This document shows, piece by piece, positions 4,659-56,746 of a DNA stretch of 64,000 nucleotides. Within the stretch, counting starts at the first letter, position 1, and each line of letters opens with the position of its first letter. This DNA is from Acidobacteriota bacterium. GTDB lineage: Bacteria > Acidobacteriota > UBA6911. The stretch lies in assembly GCA_016933615.1 (NCBI GenBank), contig JAFGAO010000061.1, positions 2,082-66,081 on the forward strand, written 5' to 3'. A model generated the notes under the pieces. The model did no database searches. It worked only from the letters and a program-made list of their open reading frames with translations, and was not told the origin of the DNA. The translations under genes and the position numbers were made by a program.

Positions 4659-6718
4659 ATCGCCGCGGCAGGCTCATCCGTCGTATTCGAATGGTTTTCT
4701 ACACCCTTGCGGGCCTGGCGGCTTTTTCTTTCCTCACGGCGGTCGTCTCCTTCTTCGTCCTTCTGGATCAACTGCCCCGCGTCCCCGAACCTCTCAGCCG
4801 CATCATCGAAAGGCCTCCCACGGAAATTTACGCGGCGACGGGCGAACGCGTTCTCGTTCTGGGCGGCCGTGAAGCGGTGCCCCTGAACCGGATCTCCCCG
4901 CGGTTTGTCGAAGCCGTCGTGGCCGTTGAGGACCATCGCTTCTGGAGCCACCACGGCATCGATAAGATCCGCCTTACCAGGGCGTTCCTGGACGGACTGG
5001 CCCCCCACAGAAGAGTCCGGGGCACATCCACAATCACCCAGCAGCTGGCGAAAAACCTTTTCTTCAGCCTCGACCGGTCCCTTAAACGCAAGTTCCTGGA
5101 AATACTCGTCGCGTGCCAGATTGAATCCAGGTATTCAAAGGAAGAAATCCTTCAGGCCTACATCAACAACACCTCTTTCGGAGTAAACGCCCTCGGGATC
5201 GAGCAGGCCTCCCGTTCATTTTTCGGCAAGCCTGCATCCGATCTCAACCTGGCGGAAGCGTCCCTGCTGGCCGGTCTGCCCCAGTCTCCCAGCGGATACA
5301 ATCCCTACCGGCACATGGATCGGGCAAAGAGGCGGCAGCGGACGGTTCTCGGGCGCATGGCGGCCGTCGGATACATCACCCCGAAGGAGTCGGACGAAGC
5401 TTTCGAGTCGCCGCTGGATCTGCGTCCGAGGCAGGCGTCCGGCGGCGGAAGCTACTTCCTGGACAAGGTCATCCGGGACCTGGAAGAACGGTACGGCCCC
5501 GAGGTCGTCTACAACGGGGGCCTGCGCGTAACCACGACACTGGACATACAGCTTCAGCGTTGGGCCGCGGAAGCCGTCGAGAAAGGCGCCGGGCGGCTGG
5601 ACCGGGAAATAGGATTGTTGCAAACGAACGCGGCGGAAAATCAAACGGCCGTGCCGCAGGTCGCTCTGGCGGCCGTGGACGTCAACTCGGGAGCCGTCAA
5701 AGCCGTCGTCGGCGGCAGGGACTATTTCAAAAGCGAATACAACCGCGCCGTCCAGAACAACCGCCAGCCCGGATCCGGCTTCAAGCCTTTTCTGTATTAC
5801 GCCGCGCTCGATTCGCCCGGCATAACCCCCGCGACGGTTTTTACCGATAAAAAAGTGACCATCCCGGTCAGGGGCGCCCCCGACTGGACGCCCGACAACT
5901 TCGGCCGCGAACACGCGGGTCCGATGATCCTGAAACGCGCCCTGATGAATTCCGTCAACTCCATCGCGGCCCAGCTCATTGTGGAATTGAAGCCGGCCGG
6001 GGTTATCGAGACGGCGCGCAAATGCGGCATCAGCAGCCCCCTGGCCGAAGTCTATTCCATTGCACTGGGCACATCGGGAGCCAGCCCTCTCGAGATGGCT
6101 TCGGCGTTCGGCGTTTTTGCATCGGGGGGCGTGCGCCACGAACCTTTCTGGATCTGGCGCGTCGAGGACGCTTACGGCCGCGCACTGGAGGAACATATAG
6201 TCAGCGGAGAAAACGCGCTGAATCCCGAAACGGTATTTCAGCTCGTCGACATGCTGCGGGGAGTCGTCGACCGGGGAACCGCCCAGGCGATCCGCACAAT
6301 GGGATTCTCCCTGCCGGCGGCCGGAAAAACCGGGACCAGCAACGACTACATGGACGCTTGGTTCACGGGCTTCACGCCCGGCTTGAGCGTCAGCATATGG
6401 ACGGGCTACGACGCCGGCAAAGGGCTCCGGGACCGCAACGGCGTCGGCATCACGGGAGGCCGTGCCGCCGCCCCTATATGGGCCGATTTCATGATCAAGG
6501 CGACCGGCGGAGAACCGGCGCGCGAATTCACCGTACCGCCCGGCATTCATTTCGAAACGGTGGACGACAGGACCGGCTATCTGACTGAAGAAGGTTCGCC
6601 GAACGCCCTGAGGGTGGCCTTGAAACCCGGGCAGAATCCCGAACCGGCTCCACCGGCGTTTTATGCGCCGGCGGCGGAACGGGAGAACGAAAGACCGTCC
6701 GCGGCAGGGCCCGATTGA
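4655..6718 (+). CDS. Penicillin-binding protein 1A (bifunctional glycosyltransferase GT51 / transpeptidase)
   Basis: GT51 motifs are EDHRFWSHHGID, GTSTITQQLAKN and RKFLE. Transpeptidase motifs are SGFKP (SxxK), SVN (SxN) and KTGTSND (KTG). There is an N-terminal TM anchor. The start at the ATG at 4655 fits the signal anchor. Confidence 0.9.
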   Translation: MNRRGRLIRRIRMVFYTLAGLAAFSFLTAVVSFFVLLDQLPRVPEPLSRIIERPPTEIYAATGERVLVLGGREAVPLNRISPRFVEAVVAVEDHRFWSHHGIDKIRLTRAFLDGLAPHRRVRGTSTITQQLAKNLFFSLDRSLKRKFLEILVACQIESRYSKEEILQAYINNTSFGVNALGIEQASRSFFGKPASDLNLAEASLLAGLPQSPSGYNPYRHMDRAKRRQRTVLGRMAAVGYITPKESDEAFESPLDLRPRQASGGGSYFLDKVIRDLEERYGPEVVYNGGLRVTTTLDIQLQRWAAEAVEKGAGRLDREIGLLQTNAAENQTAVPQVALAAVDVNSGAVKAVVGGRDYFKSEYNRAVQNNRQPGSGFKPFLYYAALDSPGITPATVFTDKKVTIPVRGAPDWTPDNFGREHAGPMILKRALMNSVNSIAAQLIVELKPAGVIETARKCGISSPLAEVYSIALGTSGASPLEMASAFGVFASGGVRHEPFWIWRVEDAYGRALEEHIVSGENALNPETVFQLVDMLRGVVDRGTAQAIRTMGFSLPAAGKTGTSNDYMDAWFTGFTPGLSVSIWTGYDAGKGLRDRNGVGITGGRAAAPIWADFMIKATGGEPAREFTVPPGIHFETVDDRTGYLTEEGSPNALRVALKPGQNPEPAPPAFYAPAAERENERPSAAGPD

Positions 6719-6797: not shown

Positions 6798-8264
6798 ATG
6801 GTCCATGCACTGAAAAACATAACGATCCGCCTCTGGATCGCCCTGGCAGCGGGCGGGCTCGCCACTCTGGGCTTGCTGGCCCTGTTCGGTTCCCCCCTGG
6901 GAGCGGCATTGAACCTGTCCGTCGCCCTTGTGCTGATCACCCTGGCATTTGTCGGATGCGGCTGGCTGTTCAACCGCATCGCGGCCCAGCGGCTCCAGGA
7001 TTGCTACAGAGAAGCCGCTTCCCGGGAGCGCACCGCAAGGATCGGGGAAGCGGCAGAGACTTTCCGCAGGGCGGTAGTTCTCTTCGACAGCTTCCTGGTC
7101 TCCCCCATGTTCCGCCGGCGTGCGGGCAGGGACCTGGCCGGAAGAATAGCGCGCTTCCACATAGCGCGATCCGTGCGCAACCCGGATTCCGAAAACTTTG
7201 TAACATCCTATCTGTGGGCGCATCCGGATGACGGGGAGGTCGCCGAATACTGGCTTCAGCATGCCCGGCTTGGAGACCGGGCCGATCCGGACCACTTGGC
7301 CCTTGCGGACCGCATCGCCGCGGCGCAGACACAAAATCCCGCGATCCTGAGCCTGATGGCCCAGACGTATCTGGCGCGGAACCGGACGGACTACACGGCC
7401 CTGCAAATCTATAAAAAACTGCTGCGGGAATCCGGCCATATCCAGGCAAAGGTTCTCCTGCGCCTGGCCGATCTCTTCGTCCAGGAAGGCCGGGCCGACG
7501 ATTGGGCCCTGGAAGCGTATCTGAAAGCCGTCAGGCGGGCGCCGGACAGGACGGAATATCTTCAGGGCCTGGCTGCCTGCCTGAGGCAGATCCGGACCAC
7601 GGAACGGAATGAATCCCTGGTTGAGGAAGCCGGGCAGGTTCTCGGCGCCTTCGACGCAGACACAATCCGCCGGTGGCAGGATCTGTTCAGCCGGGCGGCA
7701 ACCCCTTCGGCGTCCGAAGAACCGTCCCTTACGGAAAGACTGCTTTTAACCGTTCCCGGGCTCCTGCGCCGCGGATCCCGTGTTGCGGCTGAAAACACGG
7801 TGACCGCCGCCGCCATTGCCGCCCGATGGGGCCGGCATATCGGGAAATCCTGGAAAGAATCCGCGCGCACCCGCCAGACGGCCAGGTGGGCGGCGGTGAG
7901 CGTGTTCGCCGCCGTCGTCTTCATCTCCGGGATCCGAACCATAATTTACATCAGCGAAACCAAGGAATCGCCCGAATCGGCTCCATCCCCGGCAAAAACT
8001 CCCCCGATAACCGCCTCCGGCCGCTACACGGTCCAAGTCGCCTCCTTCCGCAATCGCCCCCAGGCGATCGGCTTCTCGGATCGTTTGCAGAAGATGGGAT
8101 TGCAGGCTTACTGGGGGGAATCCCGCATCACCGACGACAACATCTGGTATTACGTACGGATTTCCAGGTTCGAGGGGAAACTGGAAGCCAAGGAATTCGG
8201 GGAGAACCTGAAGAGCAAGGGTATCATCGACGACTTCTACGTCGCAAACTATAAGGCTCCATAA
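6798..8264 (+). CDS. Membrane protein with a TPR-like repeat region and a C-terminal SPOR (peptidoglycan-binding) domain
   Basis: 488 aa with two N-terminal TM helices and a central helical repeat region. The C-terminus YTVQVASFRNRPQAIGFSDRLQKMGLQAYW...YYVRISRFEGKLEAKEF is a typical SPOR fold signature. Confidence 0.7.
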   Translation: MVHALKNITIRLWIALAAGGLATLGLLALFGSPLGAALNLSVALVLITLAFVGCGWLFNRIAAQRLQDCYREAASRERTARIGEAAETFRRAVVLFDSFLVSPMFRRRAGRDLAGRIARFHIARSVRNPDSENFVTSYLWAHPDDGEVAEYWLQHARLGDRADPDHLALADRIAAAQTQNPAILSLMAQTYLARNRTDYTALQIYKKLLRESGHIQAKVLLRLADLFVQEGRADDWALEAYLKAVRRAPDRTEYLQGLAACLRQIRTTERNESLVEEAGQVLGAFDADTIRRWQDLFSRAATPSASEEPSLTERLLLTVPGLLRRGSRVAAENTVTAAAIAARWGRHIGKSWKESARTRQTARWAAVSVFAAVVFISGIRTIIYISETKESPESAPSPAKTPPITASGRYTVQVASFRNRPQAIGFSDRLQKMGLQAYWGESRITDDNIWYYVRISRFEGKLEAKEFGENLKSKGIIDDFYVANYKAP

Positions 8265-39020: not shown

Positions 39021-40379
39021 TCATGGATTTATAAGCGTGTATATTTTATCCGGGCAATCGCGGAAATACTGATCCAGCCTGTAGTCTTTTTTCAGGGTTT
39101 CAGCTATTAAAACGCTGCGCGGAGTATCCCTTGTAATGATACAGCGGGGCCTTTTGTCCAGAATGGCCCGGAGTTCCTTATCCCCGTCAATTTCCAGAGT
39201 CTTATTGTGTTCTTTGTTGAAAATCAATGAGGGATGCACATAGCGGGTGGGTGGCAGTGCATCCAGCAAAAAATAAATAATTTGATGCGAATCACTGGTA
39301 TATATGCTTGCTTCGCAATGCAGAACTTCCTTAATATATTTTGCCCTCTCCCGGGCACAATCCGCTTCGTCGTAATATGCTTTTTTCTGAATAAAAAGAT
39401 TCACCGCGATCAGAAATGCCAGCAGCGCGTATCCCGTTTTCCTTGAGAAAAGGGACTCGACGACACGCGGTTTTTTTACTTCCGGCGAAAAGAAATTCCC
39501 CGCGAGGAGCGATACGGGAAGCATTAATTGAATAAAGTAATGGTCGAAGAGTTTTCCGGGGATCAGCACGCTCGCCAGGCAGAACGCGGACCATAGACCG
39601 GCAAAAAGCTTTTCACGAATTGTATATCCGCGGATTCTATATCCGGCCAGCAACGACCAGAAAAAGAAAACAAAAATGGGCAGGAATTTTAAAATAAACT
39701 CAAGTATCCAAAGCATGGAAGGGATAAAACTTATTTCCTGCGCATAATTGAAGAATGCACTGTAATGAATCCGGCGGAAATCGTCAAAATGTCCGGAAAG
39801 ATAGAAAGCCAGGTTAACCAGTGCAAATGGAACCAGGAAAAGAACACCGGATATGAAGTATAATCCAAGCTTTCTGGGCGTCAGCTTCTTGCCGATCCAA
39901 TCCGTTATCAGCAGGAACAGGAAAATGGCCGTTATGTCGAAAACCACAACGATCTTAATGAGGAAACCCGTTCCGATAACGATCCCGGCCAAGGGAAAAC
40001 GCCAGGCACTCCTGCTCGAGAACAGGATATAAACAGCCAGGGCCGTAAATAAATTAAAAAAATGCTCCGTATTGACGGATACTCCATAGTAAGTCCAAAT
40101 GGAGATGAAAAAGATGTACAGTATTCCGCTGGCCAGGGCCGCCCTCCTTCCATGGCCGATACTCAATTTTATTTTATAAAGCAGGAACGAGGTCAGTCCA
40201 ATGACGACGGCGCCAAAAAGCCTGAATCCGAAAATAGTGTTGCCGAATATCTTTAGAAAAGCGGCGGTGATATAAAATATGCCCACCGGCTTAATATCGG
40301 TGACGTCCGTATACAAGAGTTTGCCTTCATTTATTTCATCGGCGATAACGAGGTAGGTCGATTCATCGTGGTCGATCAC
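39021..40379 (-). CDS. GT39/ArnT-like (PMT_2-type) polytopic glycosyltransferase; N-terminus appears disrupted
   Basis: 452 aa from the GTG at 40379, multi-TM. An early DHDESTY (DExxY-type) motif follows what should be TM1. TM1 (KILLLLTVLAVVIRFFSFF) is encoded in frame upstream of 40379 but has no ATG/GTG/TTG. G+C is much lower than the flanks: I hand-counted 42 and 37 G+C in two 100-nt samples. Confidence 0.7.
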   Translation of the reverse strand: MIDHDESTYLVIADEINEGKLLYTDVTDIKPVGIFYITAAFLKIFGNTIFGFRLFGAVVIGLTSFLLYKIKLSIGHGRRAALASGILYIFFISIWTYYGVSVNTEHFFNLFTALAVYILFSSRSAWRFPLAGIVIGTGFLIKIVVVFDITAIFLFLLITDWIGKKLTPRKLGLYFISGVLFLVPFALVNLAFYLSGHFDDFRRIHYSAFFNYAQEISFIPSMLWILEFILKFLPIFVFFFWSLLAGYRIRGYTIREKLFAGLWSAFCLASVLIPGKLFDHYFIQLMLPVSLLAGNFFSPEVKKPRVVESLFSRKTGYALLAFLIAVNLFIQKKAYYDEADCARERAKYIKEVLHCEASIYTSDSHQIIYFLLDALPPTRYVHPSLIFNKEHNKTLEIDGDKELRAILDKRPRCIITRDTPRSVLIAETLKKDYRLDQYFRDCPDKIYTLINP

Positions 40380-41056
40380 TGAAGGAAAGAAAGAAAAAAA
40401 ACGGATAACGACAGCAAGGACCGTAAGAAGCAGCAGTATCTTACAATCCGCAAATGCGGGTGGGGGTGCGCTTGTTACACATCGATTGGACGATAAAAGT
40501 CTGAAGAAAATGCGATTAATCCCCGCAATATCCGTAAATGACAGGAATCCTTCGCCCTGCGGGATTCTGTCACCGCAGGGGTTGCCGATGCCCGGATCGG
40601 ATGCCGGATCCTGTTCGAAGGAAAGAGGGGGGTCAATTGGAAAAACAGGCTATTTCTTTTCGAAACCCCATCAGTATCGAAACCTTGACGGCCTCTTCTC
40701 CTGCAGTTTCAGGCAAACCGTTCTTGGATTTTCCAGGGGGATTTTACTACAATCGCAGGCGGATTAAACTATAACCCTGTAATTTAAATAAGGGCGGGAA
40801 CGCTTATGACCTGGAAATGGTGCAGAAGAAGATTTTCCATGCATCCACCGGCGTTTCGCGCATTTCCTGCGCGCGACTTTCAGCATCGCGGGCATGCGCA
40901 GGATCGCGGATCCACCGCGGGGCCTCTTCCCTTTTATTGCCGGACAATCTTTTCCCTTTACTAAGGAAATTGCTCTTTCCGGAATTCATAAACCGTCCGG
41001 AAGCGCAAGACAGACGGGATCCGAAGCCGCTATTGCAATGGCCGGGAGGATTTCCT

Positions 41057-42754
41057 ATGATTGCATCTTTCATGGACCTAGGAGCGCCCGTGTCGTCTTC
41101 CAAATCCAGAAGTGGCGGTTCCCCGCAGCTGGACTTTCCGGACATGGAGTCCCTGCCCCCGGAGGCAAAAGAAGAACCCGTCGAACCGCCGGAAACCAGG
41201 AAGCGGGAAACCGCCGAGAGCATGGCCCGGCGCCAGAGGGAAATCTCGATCTCGGAGTTCTTCAGCAAGAACCGCCACCTGCTCGGTTTTGACAACCCCC
41301 GCAAAGCACTGCTGACCACCGTGAAGGAAGCCGTCGACAATTCCCTGGACGCCTGTGAAGACGCGGGAATCCTACCCTCCCTGAAGGTGGAAATCATCCA
41401 GATCGAAGAAGAAAGGTTCCGGGTCTGCGTCGAGGACAACGGGCCGGGAATCGTCAAGGCCCAGATCCCCAAGATCTTCGGAAAGCTGCTCTACGGCTCC
41501 AAGTTCCACACGTTGAAGCAGTCCAGGGGGCAACAGGGCATCGGGATTTCCGCCGCGGGAATGTACGGTCTTCTCACGACGGGAAAGTCGATTGCCGTGA
41601 CCTCCCGGACCGGCCCGGGGAAGCCGGCCCACTACTACGAAATCCAGATCGACACCCGGAAAAACGCCCCCCAGGTGATCACCGACCGGGTCGTCGAATG
41701 GGAGCCCCCCCACGGAACCCGGGTCGAAATCGAGCTCGCCGGAACCTATAAAAAGGGGAGGCATTCCGTCGACGATTACATCCGCCAGACGGCCATCGCG
41801 AATCCCCACTGCGAAATCGTATTTTCCGTCCCCGGCGAAGACGGGCCGCTGCATCTCGAGCGCGGCTCCTCGGTCCTGCCCCCGGAGCCGAAGGCGATCA
41901 AGCCGCACCCCTACGGCGTGGAGCTCGGCGTGCTGATACGCATGATGAAGGAATCCCCCGTCCGGCAGCTCGGCGCTTTCCTTCAAAAGGAATTCTCGAG
42001 GGTCAGCAGCCGCGTCGCGCAGGAAATCTGCGGGGAGGCTTCCCTGAAAACGCGGGCCAACCCCCGCTCCATCGCTGCCGGCGAAGCCGAACGCCTTTAC
42101 AGGGCGATCAATTCGACCAAGATCATGAGCCCGGCCACCAACTGCCTTTCTCCCATCGGCGAAGAGCAGATCCTGTCGGGGCTGAAAAAGGAGATCGACG
42201 CGGATTTCTACACGGCCGTGACGCGGTCGCCTTCCGTGTACCGCGGCAATCCGTTCCAGGTCGAGGCCGGTCTCGCCTACGGCGGGACCCTTCCCGGGGA
42301 CGAACTGGTCGAACTGATGCGCTTTGCCAACCGCGTCCCGCTTCAGTACCAGCAGTCCGCGTGCGCCATATCCAAGGCGGTTCTGGGAATCGACTGGCGC
42401 AGCTACGGCCTGTCCCAGTCAAAAGGCGCCCTGCCTGCGGGGCCGGTTCTGCTTTTTGTCCATATTGCCTCCGCCTGGGTGCCCTTCACATCGGAAAGCA
42501 AGGAAGCCGTGGCGGCCTACCCCGAAATCACGCGCGAATTGAGGCTGGCGCTCCAGGAGTGCGGGCGCAAACTGGCGTCCCACATCCGGACCCACCGGCG
42601 GGCGGCCGAAGAGCAGAAGAAAAGATCCTATATCGAAAAATACATCCCCCACATAGGCATCGCGCTGCGCGAAATCCTGGGATTTTCGGAAAGCGCGGAA
42701 AATAGACTGGTCGAAACTTTGAAAGACGTCCTCGAGCGCAGTCGAACAGCGTAG
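41057..42754 (+). CDS. top6B: DNA topoisomerase VI subunit B (GHKL ATPase + transducer)
   Basis: Motifs are [17 protein letters not shown], the N-box [10 protein letters not shown]1 DNGPGI, G2 [10 protein letters not shown], and transducer-region conservation ([46 protein letters not shown]). The ATG at 41057 lies 6 nt after GGGAGGA. Confidence 0.9.
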
Positions 42755-42825
42755 AGGTCTCTGGCTTTATGGTTGCGCGCGGATTCCGGACAATCGGCGC
42801 CGCAAACGGAAAACAGGATCGGTTC

Positions 42826-43953
42826 ATGGCGAAAAAAAGCGTATCGGCAGAAAAGCGGGGGCCCTCCGGCGGGAAAAATGTCCTCGAGGCGATCCGGGCA
42901 TCGGCCCAGGATATTCATAAGAAAATCCTGGCGCGGAAGAAACCCACAATGAAGTTTCCGGTACGGTCCCTGTCCAATGTCCGCTACCATCCGCAGCGCG
43001 GCTTTTTCGAGATAGCCGGGCGGAAAAAAGAACGCACCCTCACCGTCAACACGGTCAAAACATTCGCCCAGACCCTCCGGATGGTGTCCCTTTCGAAAGA
43101 ACTGATTGAAAACGACGACATCGCCACCAAAAGGGAAGCCTATTACGTGTCCAAGAACTGGGAGGAGGCGCGCTTCAACGAGCAGCCGGAGTCGGACACG
43201 GTGATGGACGACGTCGAGGCCTATTTCGCGGTCAACCGCGAGCAGTTGGGCTTTATTCCCGAGGAAAAAGGCGGGGACGTCGCCGGGCGCCTCGTGGTCA
43301 TCGACCACGACCGGGATACCGGCAAGGCACTGCGCATCGACTGCACCAGGTTCGGATCCGGCGCCTACAGCATCCCGATCTCGGTCGAACAGCTGGAGTT
43401 TGAAACCGGCGCCGACTTCATCCTGGTGATAGAAACCGCGGGCATGTTCCAGAGGCTGGTAAAGCACAACTACTGGAAAAAGGCCAACTGCATCCTGATC
43501 AGCATGGGAGGCGTGCCTACGCGCGCCTGCAGGCGCTTCATACGGCGGCTGGCGGACTCGAAGAAAATCCCCGTCTACGTTTTCGTCGACGGCGATCCGT
43601 ATGGAATAACAAATATTTACCGGACCCTGAAAGTCGGATCCGGAAACGCGGCGCACCTTAACGAGTTTTTCTGCGTCCCCCAGGCCAGTTTCCTGGGAAT
43701 TACGCCGCAGGACATCGTCGACTACCGGCTTCCGACGCACCCGCTAAAGGATGTGGATATCAAGCGCGCCCGGGACGCGATCAAAAACGACCCCTTTATC
43801 CGGCACCATAAGGAGTGGATCCGGGCCATTGAACTTCTGCTGAAGATGAGCGTGCGCGCGGAACAGCAGGCGCTGGCCAAGCACGGCCTGAATTACGTCA
43901 TCGACACCTATCTACCCGAAAAACTGAGGCGCCCCGAGCGCTTCCTGCCCTAA
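42826..43953 (+). CDS. top6A: DNA topoisomerase VI subunit A (Spo11/Top6A; 5Y-CAP + Toprim)
   Basis: The catalytic-Tyr segment is ATKREAYYVS. The Toprim Glu is in FILVIETAGMF and the DxD is in VYVFVDGDPYGI. The C-terminus has RAEQQAL. An alternative in-frame ATG lies at 42769. Confidence 0.9.
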   Translation: MAKKSVSAEKRGPSGGKNVLEAIRASAQDIHKKILARKKPTMKFPVRSLSNVRYHPQRGFFEIAGRKKERTLTVNTVKTFAQTLRMVSLSKELIENDDIATKREAYYVSKNWEEARFNEQPESDTVMDDVEAYFAVNREQLGFIPEEKGGDVAGRLVVIDHDRDTGKALRIDCTRFGSGAYSIPISVEQLEFETGADFILVIETAGMFQRLVKHNYWKKANCILISMGGVPTRACRRFIRRLADSKKIPVYVFVDGDPYGITNIYRTLKVGSGNAAHLNEFFCVPQASFLGITPQDIVDYRLPTHPLKDVDIKRARDAIKNDPFIRHHKEWIRAIELLLKMSVRAEQQALAKHGLNYVIDTYLPEKLRRPERFLP

Positions 43954-46334
43954 TATTCCCTCACGCCGCCGGTCGGAACCGTCAATACCTTTCGATACTG
44001 GGGAACGACAGGCCTGCCGCCCGCATCCAGCTTCACCGGTTCCAGCTCATATCTCACGGCCCGGGCTTTGAGGCACCGGCCCTGTGCGTCTTTTTCCTCT
44101 ACAAGGAGCCCCTCCGCGTTGAACTCCCGGACTCCCTCCGGCCCGAAGCGCAGCCAACCCAGCATCTCCCCTTCGGGCGTGTATCGATACACGTCCCGCC
44201 ATTGCTTCACGGATGCGATTCTGAAATCCACATAATTTTGGCGCCAGTCGCCGCCGACAGTGCCGGGGAAAAGGATCCGGCTCAGCAAAACCGCGTTCAG
44301 CCGCTCGACCATGCCCTTCTCGTGCCGGGTAAGGCGTCCGGACGTGAACCCATCCCCCGGCCTCACCGGTTTCAGCCTGAAGGAGGATCCTCCGGAATCC
44401 ACGGCCACACCGTAAACGAGGAGGGATTTGCGGACCTTTTGAAATTCTTCGACGGCTTTTTTATCGGAAGCGGCAACCAGCGCCAGGACATCCTTTTCAT
44501 TGGCGGCGAAAAGATCCGGATCCCGCATCAGGGAATCGAGCGCGTCCTCTACCAGGGCGGAAGCCCCGATATCCAGGCGTGGCATTTTTTTCGCAAGGAT
44601 TTCTTCCTCCGACTTCGTGATCGCGGCGACAGCGCTGCCGGCCTCCCGGTACTCACGGCTCAGATTTTCCTGTGCCTTCCGCGCCGCTTCCAGGGCCTCC
44701 GCGGCTTCCGCGAGGCCTGCTTCGGCCTGCGCGCTTTTGCGGGCCGACAGGGATTTTTTCGCCTCGGCCAGCTTTGCTTCAAGGGACCGGATCTCCTCCC
44801 TCGACTTGCGCAACGCGGCGTCGGCCTTTTCCTTTCTCTCTTCCGCGCCAAGCCGCCCGGCGTGGATTCTGCGGTACTCTTTCGAAACCCGGCCCAACGC
44901 ACCGATCTCGGCAGGCGTAAACTGCTCCCTCAATAACCTCTCCGGCCAGGAATTTCCGCCGGATTCCATAATGTCGAAAAAGCGGGACCAGTCGGCGACG
45001 GAGACAAAGGATGTTCCGGCGTCGTAGGCGATCTCGAGCGGTCGCCCGTCGGAGTGATAGCTTCTGGCTTCGCTATCGAGGCTGTAGAAGGTTATAAATG
45101 CCGGCGGAGAATAGTAGATGCCATTGTGGACAAACACGCCGATGTCCACCCGGTTCGATTCCAATCCCGGTTCGCCCGCTACCGGGAAGCGCCCGTGATA
45201 GGCGACCGTGATTTCGGCCCTGGAGCGGGATTGGTTCAGGTAATCGATCCTGATTTTTTCAGGGTCTCCGCGCAGAACGGCCCAGTGGTATTTCAGGGGG
45301 CGGTTATTCAGGTCCCTGCTGCCTTCGGCGCTTACCGTCATTTTGCGCAGGTATTGCGATCCCCGGACGATGCGCGCGACCGCGGCCGGAGTGTCCGCGA
45401 GCTTTTCCGTAAGCTCCGGTTCGAAGCAGTCGACGCCCGGAACCGGCGCGTCTTCCCGAACCACCCGCAGCAGCGCAATCGGGGGGATGTCCGAAAGGGC
45501 AATCCCGTGCGCCATATCGACCATTTTCCCGGCATCGACGTCGCTCCCGCGCATGACGGTCGGGTGCGCCTTGCCGGTCAGATACTCCTCGGGGCGTTCG
45601 AGGCGTTTGCTCGTGATTCTCAGAATCATCTGAACGGCCGGCATCAGCATGCCCGATTGAACCAGGCGTTCCTTCACCTCCGGCCGGAATGCCGCCAGGA
45701 CGTAGGGCAGCGCGCGCATGAAGGGCTGGTCCGATCCGGAAGACCCCTGCGAGATAATCAGGTACGGCGTGTTGGCGGGATACAGATCGCCGTATCCGGC
45801 CGCTTGGCCCGCCAAGCCGATGCCGTTGTGCCCGGGATCGTGGTCGCGGTGTTCGGGGTATATGTAGAGATTGTTCCGGGCGTACTGCGCGAAGAGAAAT
45901 TCCAGCCCGCCCGTCAGCGTGTAATAGGTTCTCGCGTTGCTGCCGGTCCTTTCGGGTCCGGCCGCGGTCGAGGAATTCCCGAAGACGACATGGGGAAGAA
46001 TCTTCGTCTGCATGCCGTAGTTCTGCCGGTCCCTGATCTGTTCTTCCGTGTATTCGACTTTGCTCAACTGGGGGTAAGGGGCGAGCTTCAGACTGGAGTG
46101 CCCCCCGTCGCGGTTGTCGTAATAGTCCCCGTAGTTGCCGGCGGCGGTGCCCCGGGAATACCAGTCCCGCAAACGCTCCCCGATCTCCCCGCCGTCGACG
46201 GCCACGGGTATTTCCGTCAGCCTCGTGGCGGGCAGCACGGGCGGTTCCTGCTGTCCCCGCAATGCCGAAGAAGCGACGAGAACGCATACAAACCCGATCC
46301 ACAGCCGGTTCCCAAGTTCATGCCGCACTTCCAT
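43950..46334 (-). CDS. Large secreted hypothetical protein (about 794 aa) with a central Ala/Glu/Lys-rich coiled coil
   Basis: I chose the ATG at 46334 for its signal-like N-terminus, MEVRHELGNRLWIGFVCVLVASSALRGQ. Conserved-looking His/Asp patches are NYGDYYDNRDGGHS and IYPEHRDHDPGHNG. The coiled-coil stretch is RKEKADAALRKSREEIRSLEAKLAEAKKSL.... I recognise no family. Confidence 0.65.
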   Translation of the reverse strand: MEVRHELGNRLWIGFVCVLVASSALRGQQEPPVLPATRLTEIPVAVDGGEIGERLRDWYSRGTAAGNYGDYYDNRDGGHSSLKLAPYPQLSKVEYTEEQIRDRQNYGMQTKILPHVVFGNSSTAAGPERTGSNARTYYTLTGGLEFLFAQYARNNLYIYPEHRDHDPGHNGIGLAGQAAGYGDLYPANTPYLIISQGSSGSDQPFMRALPYVLAAFRPEVKERLVQSGMLMPAVQMILRITSKRLERPEEYLTGKAHPTVMRGSDVDAGKMVDMAHGIALSDIPPIALLRVVREDAPVPGVDCFEPELTEKLADTPAAVARIVRGSQYLRKMTVSAEGSRDLNNRPLKYHWAVLRGDPEKIRIDYLNQSRSRAEITVAYHGRFPVAGEPGLESNRVDIGVFVHNGIYYSPPAFITFYSLDSEARSYHSDGRPLEIAYDAGTSFVSVADWSRFFDIMESGGNSWPERLLREQFTPAEIGALGRVSKEYRRIHAGRLGAEERKEKADAALRKSREEIRSLEAKLAEAKKSLSARKSAQAEAGLAEAAEALEAARKAQENLSREYREAGSAVAAITKSEEEILAKKMPRLDIGASALVEDALDSLMRDPDLFAANEKDVLALVAASDKKAVEEFQKVRKSLLVYGVAVDSGGSSFRLKPVRPGDGFTSGRLTRHEKGMVERLNAVLLSRILFPGTVGGDWRQNYVDFRIASVKQWRDVYRYTPEGEMLGWLRFGPEGVREFNAEGLLVEEKDAQGRCLKARAVRYELEPVKLDAGGRPVVPQYRKVLTVPTGGVREY

Positions 46335-46686
46335 GTTTCCGTTTCTCCGGTGCATCCGCCCGGTGCAATCCCCGATCCGATCCGGGCCGTCCGACACCGT
46401 CCTGCGCCGGCGCCCCGGCATACGGATCGGCAGGGGCGACCGACGTTCTTATTTCAAAGGGCGGAGAACGGCACGGCTGGGGCCGGCATCCCCGTTGTCA
46501 TGAAGTAAATATCGTACCATCCGTCGGGAACTTTTACGGCCATTGCAGCCTCCGGTTATTTCGTTTGTAATAAGGGCTATCTTAACCGATGCCCCTGACG
46601 ACATCCTCAAAAAAATGACGGGAAGACGGCAACGGTCTTTCGGATATAATGGCCGTCCAGAATACAACGCACTCCGGGAGAGGCAT

Positions 46687-47488: not shown

Positions 47489-47821
47489 CTCCCCCCCCAA
47501 TGCGCCCCGCCGCTGTTTGCGCCTTACCCTTGTATATCCGTGCGTTGCTGAAACGGTCCGGGGCATTCGAAAAACCGTGTGCGCTCCCGCATTCCGTATC
47601 CCGGTCGGATCGAGACTCCGCCGGCATCCCTCCGTCCGTTTTTCACGGAGCATCCCGCGCTTTGAGGTCTTTCCTCCGGGCCGCCGCTTTGATCCATGAT
47701 TTGTCGCCGTTTATCCGAGGACTTGTAGTGTATCTCATTGATTTTTCTGATACATTACTTGAGTTCCATTATATTTTCCCGGCGGCGGGAACGGGACAGG
47801 CAGCGGATTCATCCCTTCAGT

Positions 47822-49873
47822 ATGGTGCATTTGCCGATGCGGGATATCAAGAGGGTTCTACTAACCGGAGGAGGAACCGCGGGGCACGTCAATCCGGCAC
47901 TGGCGATCGGATCGATCTTCGCCGGAGCGGGAACCCGTTACCTGTTCGTCGGCGTCCGGGGCGGGGTCGAAGAGGATGTGGTCCCCCGCGAAGGGATCCC
48001 CATCCGGTTCGTCCGGGCATCCAGGTACCCGGGCGGTCATTCGCCCGAGATGATCAAATTTCTTGCCAACCTGCTCGCGGGATCGACCCGGTCCGTCTTT
48101 ATTCTGCTCCGCTTCCGCCCCGACATCATTGTCGGAACCGGAGGCTACGCGTCGGCCCCGATCATGATCGCCGCGGCTTTCCTGAAGAAATTCCGTCTGC
48201 TGCGTGCGCGGATTTACATGCACGAACAGAATGCCGTTCCGGGAAAGCTGAACAGGTTGATGGGACGTTTTGTGCATCAAGTATTCGTAACCTTTGACGA
48301 AACCCTGTCCCATTTTCCCGGAAAGGGCATGCCGGCAGGCTACCCGCTCCGGAAACAAATCAGCCGCAAGCCCCGCGATGAGGCGGCGCGCAAGCTTGAC
48401 TTCGACATCCCCCTAGGAAGAAAGATCATCCTGGTCTTCGGAGGATCACAGGGATCCCGGGTCATCAACCGGGCTCTGGTCGACGCCCTGGGCCACCTGC
48501 TTCCCTATCGCGATTCCCTGTTCCTCATCCATGGAGTCGGGCTTTACTGTAAAAAAGAGTACGACGCCCTGCGCGATACCGAAGAAAGGCTGCGGGGGTC
48601 CTACAGTGAAGCCCAGCTCAAAGACATAGAATCCTTTTACATTTACCGTCCGTATTTCTACGATATCGATAACCTCTATGCTGTGAGCGATCTGGTCGTG
48701 GCCCGGGCCGGCGCCGGCAGCCTGAACGAAATTTCCGCCATGGGACTCCCGGCATTGATCATCCCGAAATCCAATCTTCCCGGCAACCACCAGGTTCTGA
48801 ACGCCCGATCCATGGAAGCGGCGGGGGCGGTGGACATTCTCTACGAACAGATCACGGCAAAGAACCGTGCACTCTCGGAAACGGTCAGCGGGGAGAAGCT
48901 TGCGGAAAAGCTGCTTTCCCTGGTTCATGACCGGGAGCGCCTCGAAAAAATGGGGGCCCTGAGCCGGTCTTTTTTCAATAAGGACGCCCTCATCCGCATA
49001 GAGAAATATCTGCGGGGCGAACCGGAAGCCCGGACCGGCGGCGATCGCGTCTCAATGAAATCCGACGGGGATTTTGCGCTTGCCGACAACCATGCGCTAC
49101 TGATGCGGCTGGAACGGGAGGCGGAAAAGCGCCGCCACGAATACCGGCCGGAAAAAGTCATTGCCAGGCCTCAGGATCTGGAATATCTCAAATACCGGGC
49201 GGCCGCGCTCCTGCTTCATCCCTCCTGGCGGCACCGCAACCTGGGCGTCAAACTGCTCGGCCTGTTGGGTGCGAAAGAAAATATTCCCGAAATGCTGGCG
49301 CTCTATTCCGAACGGAAACCCGTCCCCTGGTACAAGAGACTGCTGGGGGGCGATTTCGAACAGGTTGGATTCATCCGGAGGAATATTCTCACTTCCCTTG
49401 TCCGCCTCGATGAAATCTCTCCCGGAATCGAGGAAGCGCTTGCAGCGGGCATCACGGATCCCTACTACGAAGTCAGAGCCCAGGCGGCGCACGCAGTGGC
49501 TCATTTCGGTTCCAGGCTCGCCTCCGCCCAAAACCTCGTCGACGGAATCAAGAAACTTCTAAAGGACACCAATATCGATGTAACGGTTGCGGCCGCCGAG
49601 GCTCTGGGAAAAATAGGCGGAGAGACAGACGCTCTCCCCGCGCTTCTCGGAATGTGGGACACCCGGCTGTGGAAGGTGCGCTCCGCCGTCCTGCGGGGCA
49701 TTCTGAACCTCGTGAAACGGGGCGTGATCGAAAACCCGGAAACGATTGAAGACGGCGTCGAGAAATTCATTCTGACATCCACCGATTTCAGGCCGCACTT
49801 CGAGATCAAGGCCGTTTACCGCCATCTCATGGAACTGATTGAAACGAAGAAAGAAAAGAGAATCGTACGATGA
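47822..49873 (+). CDS. murG: MurG (lipid II-forming GlcNAc transferase, GT28) fused to a roughly 300-aa C-terminal HEAT-repeat domain
   Basis: The N-terminal ~390 aa are colinear with E. coli MurG (GGGTAGHVNPALA, GTGGYASAP, HEQNAVPGKLNR, FGGSQGSRVIN, ARAGAGSLNEISAMGLPALIIP, HQVLNARSMEAAGA). The C-terminal part has HEAT-like repeats (DPYYEVRAQAAHAVAHFG, VTVAAAEALGKIGGETDALPALL, LWKVRSAVLRGI). The start is ATG 47822 or 47837. Confidence 0.8.
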   Translation: MVHLPMRDIKRVLLTGGGTAGHVNPALAIGSIFAGAGTRYLFVGVRGGVEEDVVPREGIPIRFVRASRYPGGHSPEMIKFLANLLAGSTRSVFILLRFRPDIIVGTGGYASAPIMIAAAFLKKFRLLRARIYMHEQNAVPGKLNRLMGRFVHQVFVTFDETLSHFPGKGMPAGYPLRKQISRKPRDEAARKLDFDIPLGRKIILVFGGSQGSRVINRALVDALGHLLPYRDSLFLIHGVGLYCKKEYDALRDTEERLRGSYSEAQLKDIESFYIYRPYFYDIDNLYAVSDLVVARAGAGSLNEISAMGLPALIIPKSNLPGNHQVLNARSMEAAGAVDILYEQITAKNRALSETVSGEKLAEKLLSLVHDRERLEKMGALSRSFFNKDALIRIEKYLRGEPEARTGGDRVSMKSDGDFALADNHALLMRLEREAEKRRHEYRPEKVIARPQDLEYLKYRAAALLLHPSWRHRNLGVKLLGLLGAKENIPEMLALYSERKPVPWYKRLLGGDFEQVGFIRRNILTSLVRLDEISPGIEEALAAGITDPYYEVRAQAAHAVAHFGSRLASAQNLVDGIKKLLKDTNIDVTVAAAEALGKIGGETDALPALLGMWDTRLWKVRSAVLRGILNLVKRGVIENPETIEDGVEKFILTSTDFRPHFEIKAVYRHLMELIETKKEKRIVR

Positions 49874-55541: not shown

Positions 55542-56651
55542 TTAGGGATTGCCAATTTCAGCAAGGGCATAGCTTGTGCTTCGCCCTCCCGCCGGGCTGC
55601 GCGCCAGGATTCCTTGCTCCACCAGAGATAGGATGTCACGCAGCGCTGTATCCTGAGAACACCTGGCAAGTTTTGCATACTTGGATGTCGTCAGCTTTCC
55701 TTCGAAGCCTTCGAGCAATCGGTTCAGAACCATAGTTTGTCGTTCGTTTAACGAAACGCCCTGCGTGCGTTCCCAGAAACGCGCCTTGGCAAGGACGGTC
55801 GCCAATATGCTTTGCGCGTTCTCGATAGCCCGGCCCATACAGGTGAGGAACCAGATCAGCCATTGGGTAGCATCCATTGTGCCTTTCTGGGTTTGCTCAA
55901 GAATACCGTAGTACGCGTTGCGCTCCCGCCTGATCTGCTCCGACATACTGTAGAAACGTTGCGGGCTTTTCTCCGAGCGCGCAAGAAGCATGTCGGTAAT
56001 GGCGCGTGCAATTCGACCATTGCCGTCATCGAACGGGTGGATGGTCACAAACCAGAGGTGCGCAATTGCGGACTTTAAGACCTCATCCGTCTCGGGCGAT
56101 CTGTTGAACCAATCAAAAAAAGCCGACATTTCCTGGGAGAGCCGCCCCGCAGCCGGTGCTTCATAATGAACGCACTCCTTTCCAACGGGCCCGGAAACGA
56201 CTTGCATGGGACCGGTGCTATCATCGCGCCAGGTCCCTACTCTGATTGTTTTCATGCCGCTGCGCCCGGTAGGAAACAGAGCAGCATGCCAGGCAAACAG
56301 CCGTTCTTCATTCAGCGGCCGGTCGTAATTTCGGGTGGCATCGAGCGTCATTTCGACGATTCCTTCCACATGGCGATCGGCCGGCTTGAGCGCTCCGATG
56401 TCCATTCCGAGATGGCGCGCGACAGAGGAATGTACCTGTACCTTGTTGAGATCCTCACCCTCGATTTCGCTGCTCTTAAGGACGTCTGCCGTAAGTGTCT
56501 GCAAGACAGCCTCCTGGCGAAGCTTAAAGCCGAGGGCTTCCATATGGCCCGTTAACCGTCCTTGCTTATGACGGACCTCCGCTAGAGAATCAGCAAGACG
56601 TTCCTTGTCCCATCTGAAATGAGGCCAGTCTTGAAGATCATGAATATACAA
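55542..56651 (-). CDS. Fic-family protein (AMPylase type; class II with an N-terminal inhibitory helix and a C-terminal wHTH-like region)
   Basis: The Fic motif is HPFDDGNGRIARA. The inhibitory motif is SSEIEG ((S/T)xxxE(G/N)). The N-terminus YIHDLQDWPHFRWD is DUF4172-like. I prefer the TTG at 56651 (8 nt after AGGAGG) over the track's GTG at 56660, which directly abuts the SD. Confidence 0.85.
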   Translation of the reverse strand: MYIHDLQDWPHFRWDKERLADSLAEVRHKQGRLTGHMEALGFKLRQEAVLQTLTADVLKSSEIEGEDLNKVQVHSSVARHLGMDIGALKPADRHVEGIVEMTLDATRNYDRPLNEERLFAWHAALFPTGRSGMKTIRVGTWRDDSTGPMQVVSGPVGKECVHYEAPAAGRLSQEMSAFFDWFNRSPETDEVLKSAIAHLWFVTIHPFDDGNGRIARAITDMLLARSEKSPQRFYSMSEQIRRERNAYYGILEQTQKGTMDATQWLIWFLTCMGRAIENAQSILATVLAKARFWERTQGVSLNERQTMVLNRLLEGFEGKLTTSKYAKLARCSQDTALRDILSLVEQGILARSPAGGRSTSYALAEIGNP

Positions 56652-56746
56652 TCTCCGCACCTCCTGCGGAGATTGTAAAATTATTCACCGCAAAAGACAA
56701 CATATATTCCGCATATTTTGCGTCGAATAGTAGGATAATCTCCGCA
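56649..56746 (-). promoter_or_regulatory. Hairpin/operator-like repeats at the Fic translation start and upstream region
   Basis: CAATCTCCGCA (56649-56659) and its reverse complement TGCGGAGATTG (56665-56675) flank the loop CCTCC. On the mRNA strand that loop is the SD GGAGG, and the TTG start lies in the stem. A third copy, AATCTCCGCA, is at 56737-56746 inside about 32% G+C DNA. Confidence 0.5.

Follow-up and report, generated by a model that had tools for sequence, protein, structure and literature searches.

A complete topoisomerase VI operon in an Acidobacteriota genome and a candidate sliding-clamp-binding motif in the N-terminal tails of bacterial Top6B

Introduction

DNA topoisomerase VI (Topo VI) has been surveyed in bacteria by Allen and Maxwell (2024), who described it in 17 families, including Anaeromyxobacter, Nitrospira, Bdellovibrio and Pirellulales (PMC11302465). 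In their trees, the bacterial sequences formed two clusters within the archaeal clade, one of them beside the Methanococcales, and bacterial Topo VI was traced ultimately to horizontal gene transfer from archaea (PMC11302465). The role of the enzyme in bacteria was called unresolved and puzzling. Acidobacteriota are not among the 17 families, the word itself is absent from the paper, and N-terminal tails are not discussed in it (PMC11302465). Here, a top6B-top6A operon (top6BA) is described in a stretch of 64,000 nucleotides from an Acidobacteriota bacterium (contig JAFGAO010000061.1 of assembly GCA_016933615.1), which is referred to as the window throughout. The analysis also concerns a short motif in the tails of bacterial Top6B proteins, which is a candidate binding site for the beta sliding clamp (DnaN).

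The enzyme of the window is the same as the published bacterial Topo VI. The archaeal enzymes with solved structures (M. mazei 2Q2E, S. shibatae 2ZBK, and M. jannaschii Top6A 1D3Y) likewise consist of two subunits, have all catalytic residues in common with the window, and show the same domain order: GHKL, H2TH and transducer domains in the B subunit, and a winged-helix domain, a beta domain and Toprim in the A subunit. The differences are that the host is a bacterium, that Top6B is without the C-terminal immunoglobulin-like domain of M. mazei and ends about 20 residues past the transducer helix, and that it carries an extra N-terminal tail of 46–51 residues relative to archaeal-type sequences.

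More distant bacterial relatives within the type IIB/Top6A superfamily are Topo VIII/Mini-A and MksG/JetD. Topo VIII is described as plasmid-borne and atypical, and MksG/JetD as lone A-like nucleases in SMC-type defence systems (PMC7671362, PMC13040014). The window, in contrast, encodes two canonical subunits in separate chromosomal genes. In Topo VIII, the A and B parts are joined in a single polypeptide. Assignments of the window proteins to Topo VIII, Mini-A, MksG or the Spo11/TopoVIB-like group were considered and rejected, because the subunits are separate and canonical and score as Topo VI.

The Operon and Its Products

The best overall explanation of the locus is that it encodes a complete and apparently active Topo VI, acquired in the distant past and now passed on vertically, and a probability of about 0.85 is given to this reading. 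The two genes lie next to each other on the same strand, with 71 nt between them (or 14 nt if top6A is taken from an upstream ATG at 42769). For comparison, a set of 80 related loci (L001–L080) was assembled, and the B-then-A order recurs in about 75 of them, the rest being truncated contigs or loci in which the genes are further apart. A sequence-only reading of the window had claimed a full-length pair with intact catalytic elements and had proposed hidden Markov model searches with TP6A_N, Toprim, HATPase_c and the Topo-VIb transducer. All four profiles gave matches, so that both plus-strand open reading frames (ORFs) are confirmed by Pfam, and Top6B by equivalog models as well; every motif quoted in that reading was found in the translations. 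The coordinates are collected in Table 1. A scan of positions 40300–44200 for promoters and terminators returned nothing beyond the chance level.

Table 1. Features of the top6BA locus and of its surroundings, in positions of the window.
Feature	Position	Strand	Remarks
top6B coding sequence	41057..42754	+	565 aa, stop TAG; profile matches and identical NCBI protein P0001
Shine-Dalgarno-like GGGAGGA	41044..41050	+	6 nt 5' of the top6B ATG; read from the sequence
Top6B N-terminal tail, aa 1-51	41057..41209	+	Ser/Pro/Glu-rich; conservation limited to the closest relatives
Conserved island S-P-Q-L-D-F-P-D-M, aa 22-30	41120..41146	+	alignment of the subclade
Window motif Q24-L-D-F-P-D29 (QLDFPD)	41126-41143	+	core QLDFP at 41126-41140
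Top6B core start, universally conserved	41210..41263	+	homologous from here on to other phyla and to M. mazei Top6B
Top6B GHKL (Bergerat-fold) ATPase domain	41303..41620	+	Pfam HATPase_c, aa 83-188
Top6B ATPase residues Glu91, Asn95, Asp127	41327, 41339, 41435	+	Asp127 in DNGPGI
Top6B ATP-lid	41525-41554	+	RGQQGIG157-163; aligns to the conserved S. shibatae/M. mazei lid
Top6B transducer domain	42131..42622	+	Pfam Topo-VIb_trans, aa 359-522, E = 1e-61
Top6B switch lysine, Lys482 in FTSESKEA	42500-42502	+	aligns with the lysine of S. shibatae YKSAGKES
top6A coding sequence	42826..43953	+	375 aa from MAKKS, stop TAA; start most likely
Top6A winged-helix (5Y-CAP) domain	43057..43251	+	Pfam TP6A_N
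Top6A Arg and catalytic Tyr in KREAYYVS	43132-43134 (Arg), 43144-43146 (Tyr)	+	align to M. jannaschii Arg99 and Tyr103
Top6A Toprim domain	43417..43926	+	Pfam TOP6A-Spo11_Toprim, E = 5e-60
Top6A Toprim Glu (IETAGMF) and DxD (DGDPYG)	43432-43434 (Glu), 43588-43596 (DxD)	+	
Low-GC segment between TrmO and top6B	38714-41056		gene GC 0.45, GC3 0.53
PMT_2/ArnT-like glycosyltransferase	39021-40379	-	within the low-GC segment
ORF convergent to top6A	43950-46421	-	823 aa; 3' ends overlap by 4 nt
MurG-type glycosyltransferase (GT28 N and C domains) with HEAT repeats	47738-49873	+	711 aa
Fic/DOC + DUF4172 gene	55542-56660	-	in a stretch of GC 0.52-0.53, below its surroundings

Top6B exceeds the whole-protein equivalog cut-offs of NCBIfam (NF003218, 692 bits against 274; TIGR01052, 544 bits against 381), covers positions 3–509 of the 539 in the NF003218 profile, and is matched by Pfam HATPase_c at 7e-11 in addition to the transducer profile. 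It aligns with M. mazei Top6B over 490 residues (E = 4e-155). The N-box Glu and Asn, the G1 box DxGxG and the G2 ATP-lid are all present, and Glu91, Asn95 and Asp127 align to E38, N42 and D76 of S. shibatae and to their M. mazei counterparts. The switch lysine of the transducer, a residue that contacts the gamma-phosphate, is also in place. The same 565-residue protein, identical residue for residue, is already deposited at NCBI (P0001) under the label ‘MAG: DNA topoisomerase VI subunit B [Acidobacteria bacterium]’, where MAG stands for metagenome-assembled genome. In many other representatives at 50% identity, such as P0121 (aa ~243–741) and P0124 (aa ~143–658), Top6B is split by large inteins (Intein_splicing plus a LAGLIDADG homing endonuclease), which sit just before the ATP-lid, at query residues ~150–165.

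The top6B start used in the sequence-only reading was kept, and that of top6A most likely lies at 42826 instead of 42769. An open frame for top6B extends from 40817 to 42754, and the ATG at 41057 follows a Shine-Dalgarno-like sequence. An alternative GTG at 41090, with TAGGAG upstream, would give 554 aa and is the start annotated in most close relatives. Initiation at 41222 is impossible, because homology to other phyla begins at residues 47–52, upstream of Met56. The conserved segment that begins there is, judging by its position, probably the N-terminal strap region. For top6A, the ORF spans 42769–43953, and its first in-frame ATG would yield 394 aa. The start at 42826 is favoured because most relatives align only from residue 20 of that longer version and because in two relatives, L001 and L003, a stop codon stands five codons before the Met in question.

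Top6A exceeds all its Pfam domain cut-offs, with Topo_VI_alpha at 8e-18 and TP6A_N at 6e-16 beside the Toprim profile. It falls under the equivalog cut-offs of NCBIfam (best NF003337, 485 bits against 675; all six PRK04342 sub-models below theirs). Since the Pfam cut-offs are exceeded, this shortfall reflects the narrow, lineage-specific archaeal sub-models and not a lost feature. The protein aligns with M. jannaschii Top6A over 303 residues with 57% identity (E = 1e-113), and its bit scores are 383 against this Methanococcales sequence, 212 against M. mazei and 164 against S. shibatae. The preference for Methanococcales (383 against 212 bits) fits the published cluster adjacent to that order. 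In the numbering of the 394-aa version, Arg122 and Tyr126 correspond to M. jannaschii Arg99 and Tyr103, and Glu222, Asp274 and Asp276 to Glu197, Asp249 and Asp251.

When the residues were mapped onto the solved archaeal structures, no catalytic position was found to be inactivated in either subunit. The Arg, Tyr, Glu, DxD, GHKL residues and switch Lys all align to archaeal equivalents, and the substitutions at the tyrosine or in Toprim that would have spoken against the sequence-only reading are absent. The product of top6BA is thus very likely an active Topo VI, as judged from its residues. Toprim nucleases resembling Top6A are known from bacterial defence systems (PMC13040014), and the genes might instead be a Topo VI-derived nuclease or defence module (MksG/JetD- or Spo11-like) or encode catalytically dead proteins. 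This is highly improbable: Top6B is full-length, has an intact ATPase and switch lysine and surpasses the equivalog cut-offs, the operon is not adjoined by SMC/Mks or other defence genes, and its residues are very highly conserved across hundreds of genomes.

By homology to the solved archaeal enzymes, the product would act as a type IIB enzyme of A2B2 composition. The GHKL domains of Top6B would dimerise on ATP and capture the T-segment, and the transducer with its switch lysine would relay the signal to Top6A. The winged-helix tyrosine and the Toprim Mg2+ site would then cut the G-segment, the second duplex would pass, and the break would be resealed, resulting in relaxation and, above all, decatenation. 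According to the published survey, gyrase occurs in every Topo VI-bearing bacterium and topoisomerase IV only in those of the Pseudomonadota and Terrabacteria; the survey also mentions unpublished work in which M. mazei Topo VI complemented E. coli parE(ts) (PMC11302465). Because topoisomerase IV is missing from Topo VI bacteria outside these two groups, Topo VI may serve there as the dedicated decatenase of the cell beside gyrase.

The N-Terminal Tail of Bacterial Top6B

The sequence-only reading had pointed to a Ser/Pro/Glu-rich extension of roughly 55 residues, and this agrees with the window protein, in which 62 residues precede ISISEFF and some 46–51 of them lie upstream of the conserved TAESMAxRQRE shared across phyla. 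The comparison of tails drew on three sets: some 70 bacterial loci with a label, the 120 closest proteins in the database, and 150 representatives taken at 50% identity. In archaeal-type proteins, 5–30 residues precede the core (TAESMAxRQREISxSEFF), whereas bacterial ones often have 40–300, which are of low complexity and cannot be aligned between lineages. Two of the 50%-identity representatives come with a taxonomy; both are archaeal and short-tailed.

Within the bacterial tails, an island of the form Q-L-x-L-[FLVIM]-[ED] recurs about 40–75 residues before the conserved core. It takes the forms QLGLFE (Myxococcota, Polarisedimenticolia), QLDMFG, QMDLF, QLALL, xLPLF[DE] (Latescibacterota, Krumholzibacteriia and others) and QLSL[VMI][ED] (many Acidobacteriota). 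Examples of the surrounding peptides are ESSRQLSLLEASQ in P0013, KRVQLGLFEEAA in L052 and TDALPLFEGSE in L049, as well as KRVQLGLFEEA and RQLSLLEAS. Occurrences were counted in 91 de-replicated tails and compared with 2000 composition-preserving shuffles. The pentameric pattern Q-phi-x-[LM]-[FL], which was set a priori, is present in 11 of the 91 tails against 0.28 ± 0.53 in the shuffles, none of which reached 11; the enrichment is about 40-fold, in a test that overstates independence because the de-replicated tails are still phylogenetically related. A relaxed pattern, defined after the data had been seen, matches 37 of the 91 tails (1.7 expected). The strict hexameric clamp consensus Q-phi-x-[L/M]-x-[F/L] is found in none of the 91 and is not enriched. 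Of 38 instances, 25 have Asp or Glu right after the motif, at a position outside every pattern used; the background is 9%. The motif lies at a median of 57 residues before ISxSEFF. Among tails of at least 90 residues, 28 of 38 carry it, and among those of 39–60 residues, only 3 of 30.

In a rough neighbour-joining tree of Top6B, all motif-bearing sequences fall in the clade that holds all labelled bacteria, and the archaeal-type, short-tailed proteins are without it. The intein-bearing P0121 also has the motif and is therefore a member of the bacterial clade. A short tail motif specific to bacterial Top6B is statistically robust. It is widespread in the bacterial clade, with apparent losses in Scalindua/Brocadiaceae, in the Polyangiaceae/Thermoanaerobaculia group and on many shallow Acidobacteriota branches. 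Read from this low-resolution tree, the motif may be ancestral and repeatedly lost. The N-termini of Top6A were searched for the same motif, and it was absent from the protein of the window, with matches at chance level only in others.

The tail of the window itself belongs to a subclade in which no part of the tail is better conserved than the island, which has the form SPQL[ND]F[PLM]E[IM]. Its L25 is invariant in the subclade alignment, and S22 and E/D29 are conserved at 90% or more. At the aligned position, sister sequences are canonical, with QLSLL(E) in P0013 and QLNLL(E) in P0017. One apparent motif, ‘ERRNSI(R/P)KK’ at the tail starts of some relatives, was discarded as a protein feature, being a translated Shine-Dalgarno sequence followed by an ATT/ATC codon. 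For this reason, the QLxL island was checked for constraint at the protein level. Between the window and three relatives (L002, L003 and L004), its codons differ by synonymous changes at Ser, Pro and Leu; constraint therefore acts on the peptide and not on the DNA.

Further observations concern translation of the tail and its other forms. In several Acidobacteriota relatives (L031, at ~8161–8180, L036, L032, L039, L016 and L040), a stop codon immediately precedes the open frame of top6B. A strong Shine-Dalgarno sequence, AAGGAGGATAGGAGT, then leads to ATT or ATC, and no ATG, GTG or TTG occurs before the conserved tail motif. Top6B in these loci may initiate at a non-canonical AUU or AUC codon, which would be a possible translational throttle. 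In L002 (~7820–7870), the tail has a one-base frame break just upstream of the motif in comparison with the window and P0003, which is likely an assembly error or a recent frameshift in that metagenome-assembled genome. A second kind of tail is long, Lys/Ala/Pro-rich and histone H1-like, and it is without QLxL. It occurs on both subunits in L057, L071, L076 and L077 and on Top6B in P0123, P0204 and P0268. Such H1-like extensions on both subunits suggest non-specific DNA binding as an alternative add-on.

A Candidate Binding Site for the Sliding Clamp

Motifs that bind the beta clamp have the form Q-phi-x-[L/M]-[F/L] or Q-phi-x-[L/M]-x-[F/L], and their flanks are mostly acidic (PMC11139829). 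In Hda, the motif is located in a disordered N-terminus, and in E. coli, loss of the leading Gln weakens clamp binding (PMC11139829). The tails of bacterial Top6B resemble those of known ligands (Hda QLSLPL, DNA polymerase II QLGLF, UmuC QLNLF) in that a short motif with acidic flanks is placed in a low-complexity terminal tail, and several of them carry literal QLGLF, QLSLL, QLDMF or QLNLL. The differences are that type IIB topoisomerases are a class outside the known clamp ligands, that QLDFPD of the window is non-canonical, and that binding by Top6B is hypothesised.

The proposal is that the bacterial Top6B lineage acquired a disordered tail with a Q-L-x-L-hydrophobic-[D/E] peptide that docks onto DnaN. 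Docking would concentrate Topo VI on freshly replicated DNA, where precatenanes form, and the tail of the window would keep QLDFPD as a divergent copy of the docking peptide. In support of a clamp-binding motif, the acidic residue after the motif matches the described flanks, and Hda is a precedent for a motif in a disordered N-terminus. The enrichment of the a priori clamp consensus points the same way. We know of no other bacterial short linear motif of the form QLxLF.

Other readings of the same tail have to be weighed against this. The motif could dock a different partner, act as a degron or in regulation, form an intramolecular part of the ATP gate or be a conserved feature unrelated to clamps, with the enzyme left untethered. 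In the version of the window and in many others, the strict consensus is broken: position 5 is Val, Met or Ile, position 4 is Phe, or the leading Gln is absent. Many functional-looking orthologues do not have the motif. No type II topoisomerase is among the known clamp ligands in the 2024 beta-clamp review, in which the words topoisomerase and gyrase occur zero times (PMC11139829). Against this alternative stand the enrichment of the consensus and the fit of the acidic flank and the N-terminal location to described clamp-binding motifs. A little under an even chance is given to it.

Several points weigh against clamp tethering, beyond the relatedness of the tails and the post hoc choice of the relaxed pattern. 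QLDFPD fails the published strict consensus through Phe at position 4 and Pro at position 5, and because of this, tethering of the Top6B of the window can only be inferred. About a quarter of the motif instances are without the leading Gln (xLPLF, TLSLF). Many close Acidobacteriota, Scalindua/Brocadiaceae and Polyangiaceae have short tails without the motif, which means that it is dispensable or replaced in these lineages. An AlphaFold2 model of Top6B, built with 36 close relatives aligned, shows residues 1–52 as coil with a predicted local distance difference test (pLDDT) score of ~30; the whole model is poor (mean pLDDT 54.5, predicted template modelling score 0.32), so that it lends weak support to disorder of the tail. 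When neighbouring ORFs were clustered over the 80 loci in search of replication or segregation genes, none were linked and only lineage-specific synteny emerged. The literature covered reports no biochemistry of bacterial Topo VI.

A literature search combining Topo VI with clamp-binding motifs or sliding clamps found nothing relevant, with most subscription journals outside its reach, and dnaN is not in the 64-kb window. On balance, the odds that the tail motif, taken over the whole family, truly serves to bind the clamp are judged to be about even. The fuller proposal, in which Topo VI gained a clamp-binding disordered tail on its move from archaea to bacteria, coupling the decatenase to the replisome or to trailing clamps, with the window motif as a divergent descendant, would be tentative and falls somewhat short of even odds. 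QLDFPD appears to be a divergent member of the bacterial tail motif and thus a candidate beta-clamp-binding motif, and it is rather doubtful that this variant still binds the clamp.

Host, Inheritance and Neighboring Genes

The sequence-only reading had described Topo VI as sporadic in bacteria and its occurrence here as a novelty. This did not hold. Beside the published survey of 17 families and the existing NCBI annotation of the protein, a Top6A scan of species-representative genomes gave at least 526 loci with close relatives. The best 42 matches are all labelled Acidobacteriota (two of them as Terriglobia), with 85–95% Top6A identity, and include UBA6911, a gp18 isolate, a closed 6.9-Mb chromosome and a 1.36-Mb contig. 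At 75–82% identity follow Latescibacterota, Eisenbacteria, Krumholzibacteriia, Polarisedimenticolia, Myxococcota, Gemmatimonadota, Binatia, Fibrobacteraceae and Scalindua/Brocadiaceae. Complete genomes of relatives are available in OY761556.1, at 6.9 Mb, and in CP070631.1. The Myxococcota and the Polyangiaceae, which are also among the compared loci, connect this set with the published one. The distribution found here is much wider, at no fewer than 526 species-level genomes, with Latescibacterota, Eisenbacteria, Krumholzibacteriia, Binatia, Gemmatimonadota and Scalindua represented. The operon is a further member of the already known bacterial Topo VI, and the enzyme is common in this lineage, not sporadic.

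Topo VI is characteristic of archaea, and the best matches among solved structures are archaeal, so an archaeal or chimeric contig produced by a binning or assembly error was considered. This possibility is next to negligible. The window carries PBP1a, a SPOR protein, Omp85, MurG, MraY and an M23 peptidase, and peptidoglycan and outer-membrane genes flank the operon on both sides within the 64 kb. The gene order is repeated in independent assemblies, among them the closed chromosome and the 1.36-Mb contig mentioned above. Composition shows no break at the operon: the two genes have a GC content of 0.61 and 0.58 against 0.576 for the window, and their GC at third codon positions (GC3), 0.78 and 0.77, is that of host genes, as the sequence-only reading had held.

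A recent horizontal acquisition, or membership of a mobile island, is very improbable. In its favour, bacterial Topo VI is ultimately of archaeal origin (PMC11302465), a low-GC glycosyltransferase gene stands directly upstream of top6B, and the 75–82% identity of Top6A across phyla hints at transfers between them. Against it, besides the matching composition, the order TrmO ... top6BA ... MurG(-HEAT)/MraY is common to the window and many Acidobacteriota relatives. Identity decreases with taxonomic distance, and L057 is the only labelled Acidobacteriota locus outside the one clade of the rough Top6B tree that holds all the others. The low-GC gene is absent from all relatives, which identifies it, and not the topoisomerase, as the inserted element. 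The contig is thus neither archaeal nor chimeric, and the operon is no recent island; top6BA was acquired long ago and is now a vertically inherited core chromosomal operon.

The cross-phylum figures for the two subunits differ. Top6A is 75–82% identical between bacterial phyla (for example, Acidobacteriota against Scalindua), while Top6B of the same loci is at ~58–65%. The A subunit is either unusually constrained or has moved between phyla recently.

The foreign look of the gene upstream of top6B, which had been noticed earlier, is borne out. The PMT_2/ArnT-like glycosyltransferase lies in the low-GC segment between TrmO and top6B and has no counterpart in any syntenic relative; in L002, TrmO abuts top6B directly. 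For these reasons, the glycosyltransferase is regarded as the insertion and the topoisomerase as the resident. In eight other loci, seven of them outside the Acidobacteriota, a Peptidase_M54 (archaemetzincin-family) gene is directly upstream of top6B, as at 5760–6446 of L063 (Scalindua), the representative that was scanned.

Downstream, the 823-aa ORF convergent to top6A has no Pfam or NCBIfam match. It combines a hydrophobic N-terminal segment with a long Ala/Glu/Lys-rich, coiled-coil-like stretch, and its homologues are found only in the two closest relatives (L001, 69% identity; L002, 61%). Further along, the MurG-type glycosyltransferase is fused to C-terminal HEAT repeats, and this fusion is matched over its full length in many Acidobacteriota relatives, beside MraY. 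The Fic/DOC gene is listed in Table 1.

Conclusions

Acidobacteriota and a string of uncultured phyla are added to the published list of bacteria with Topo VI. In these lineages, the enzyme is common and vertically stable rather than sporadic, and the operon of the window is itself ordinary. The tail motif offers a concrete and cheaply testable answer to a question that the survey of the field calls puzzling. If it is truly clamp-binding, it would account for the integration of an archaeal enzyme into bacterial replication and would give a direct handle on the function of Topo VI in bacteria. Topo VI would then be the first type II topoisomerase known as a direct client of DnaN, and it would represent a new class of client in the beta-clamp interactome, which is itself a drug target. 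The published puzzle of the role of Topo VI in bacteria would thereby receive a mechanistic answer.

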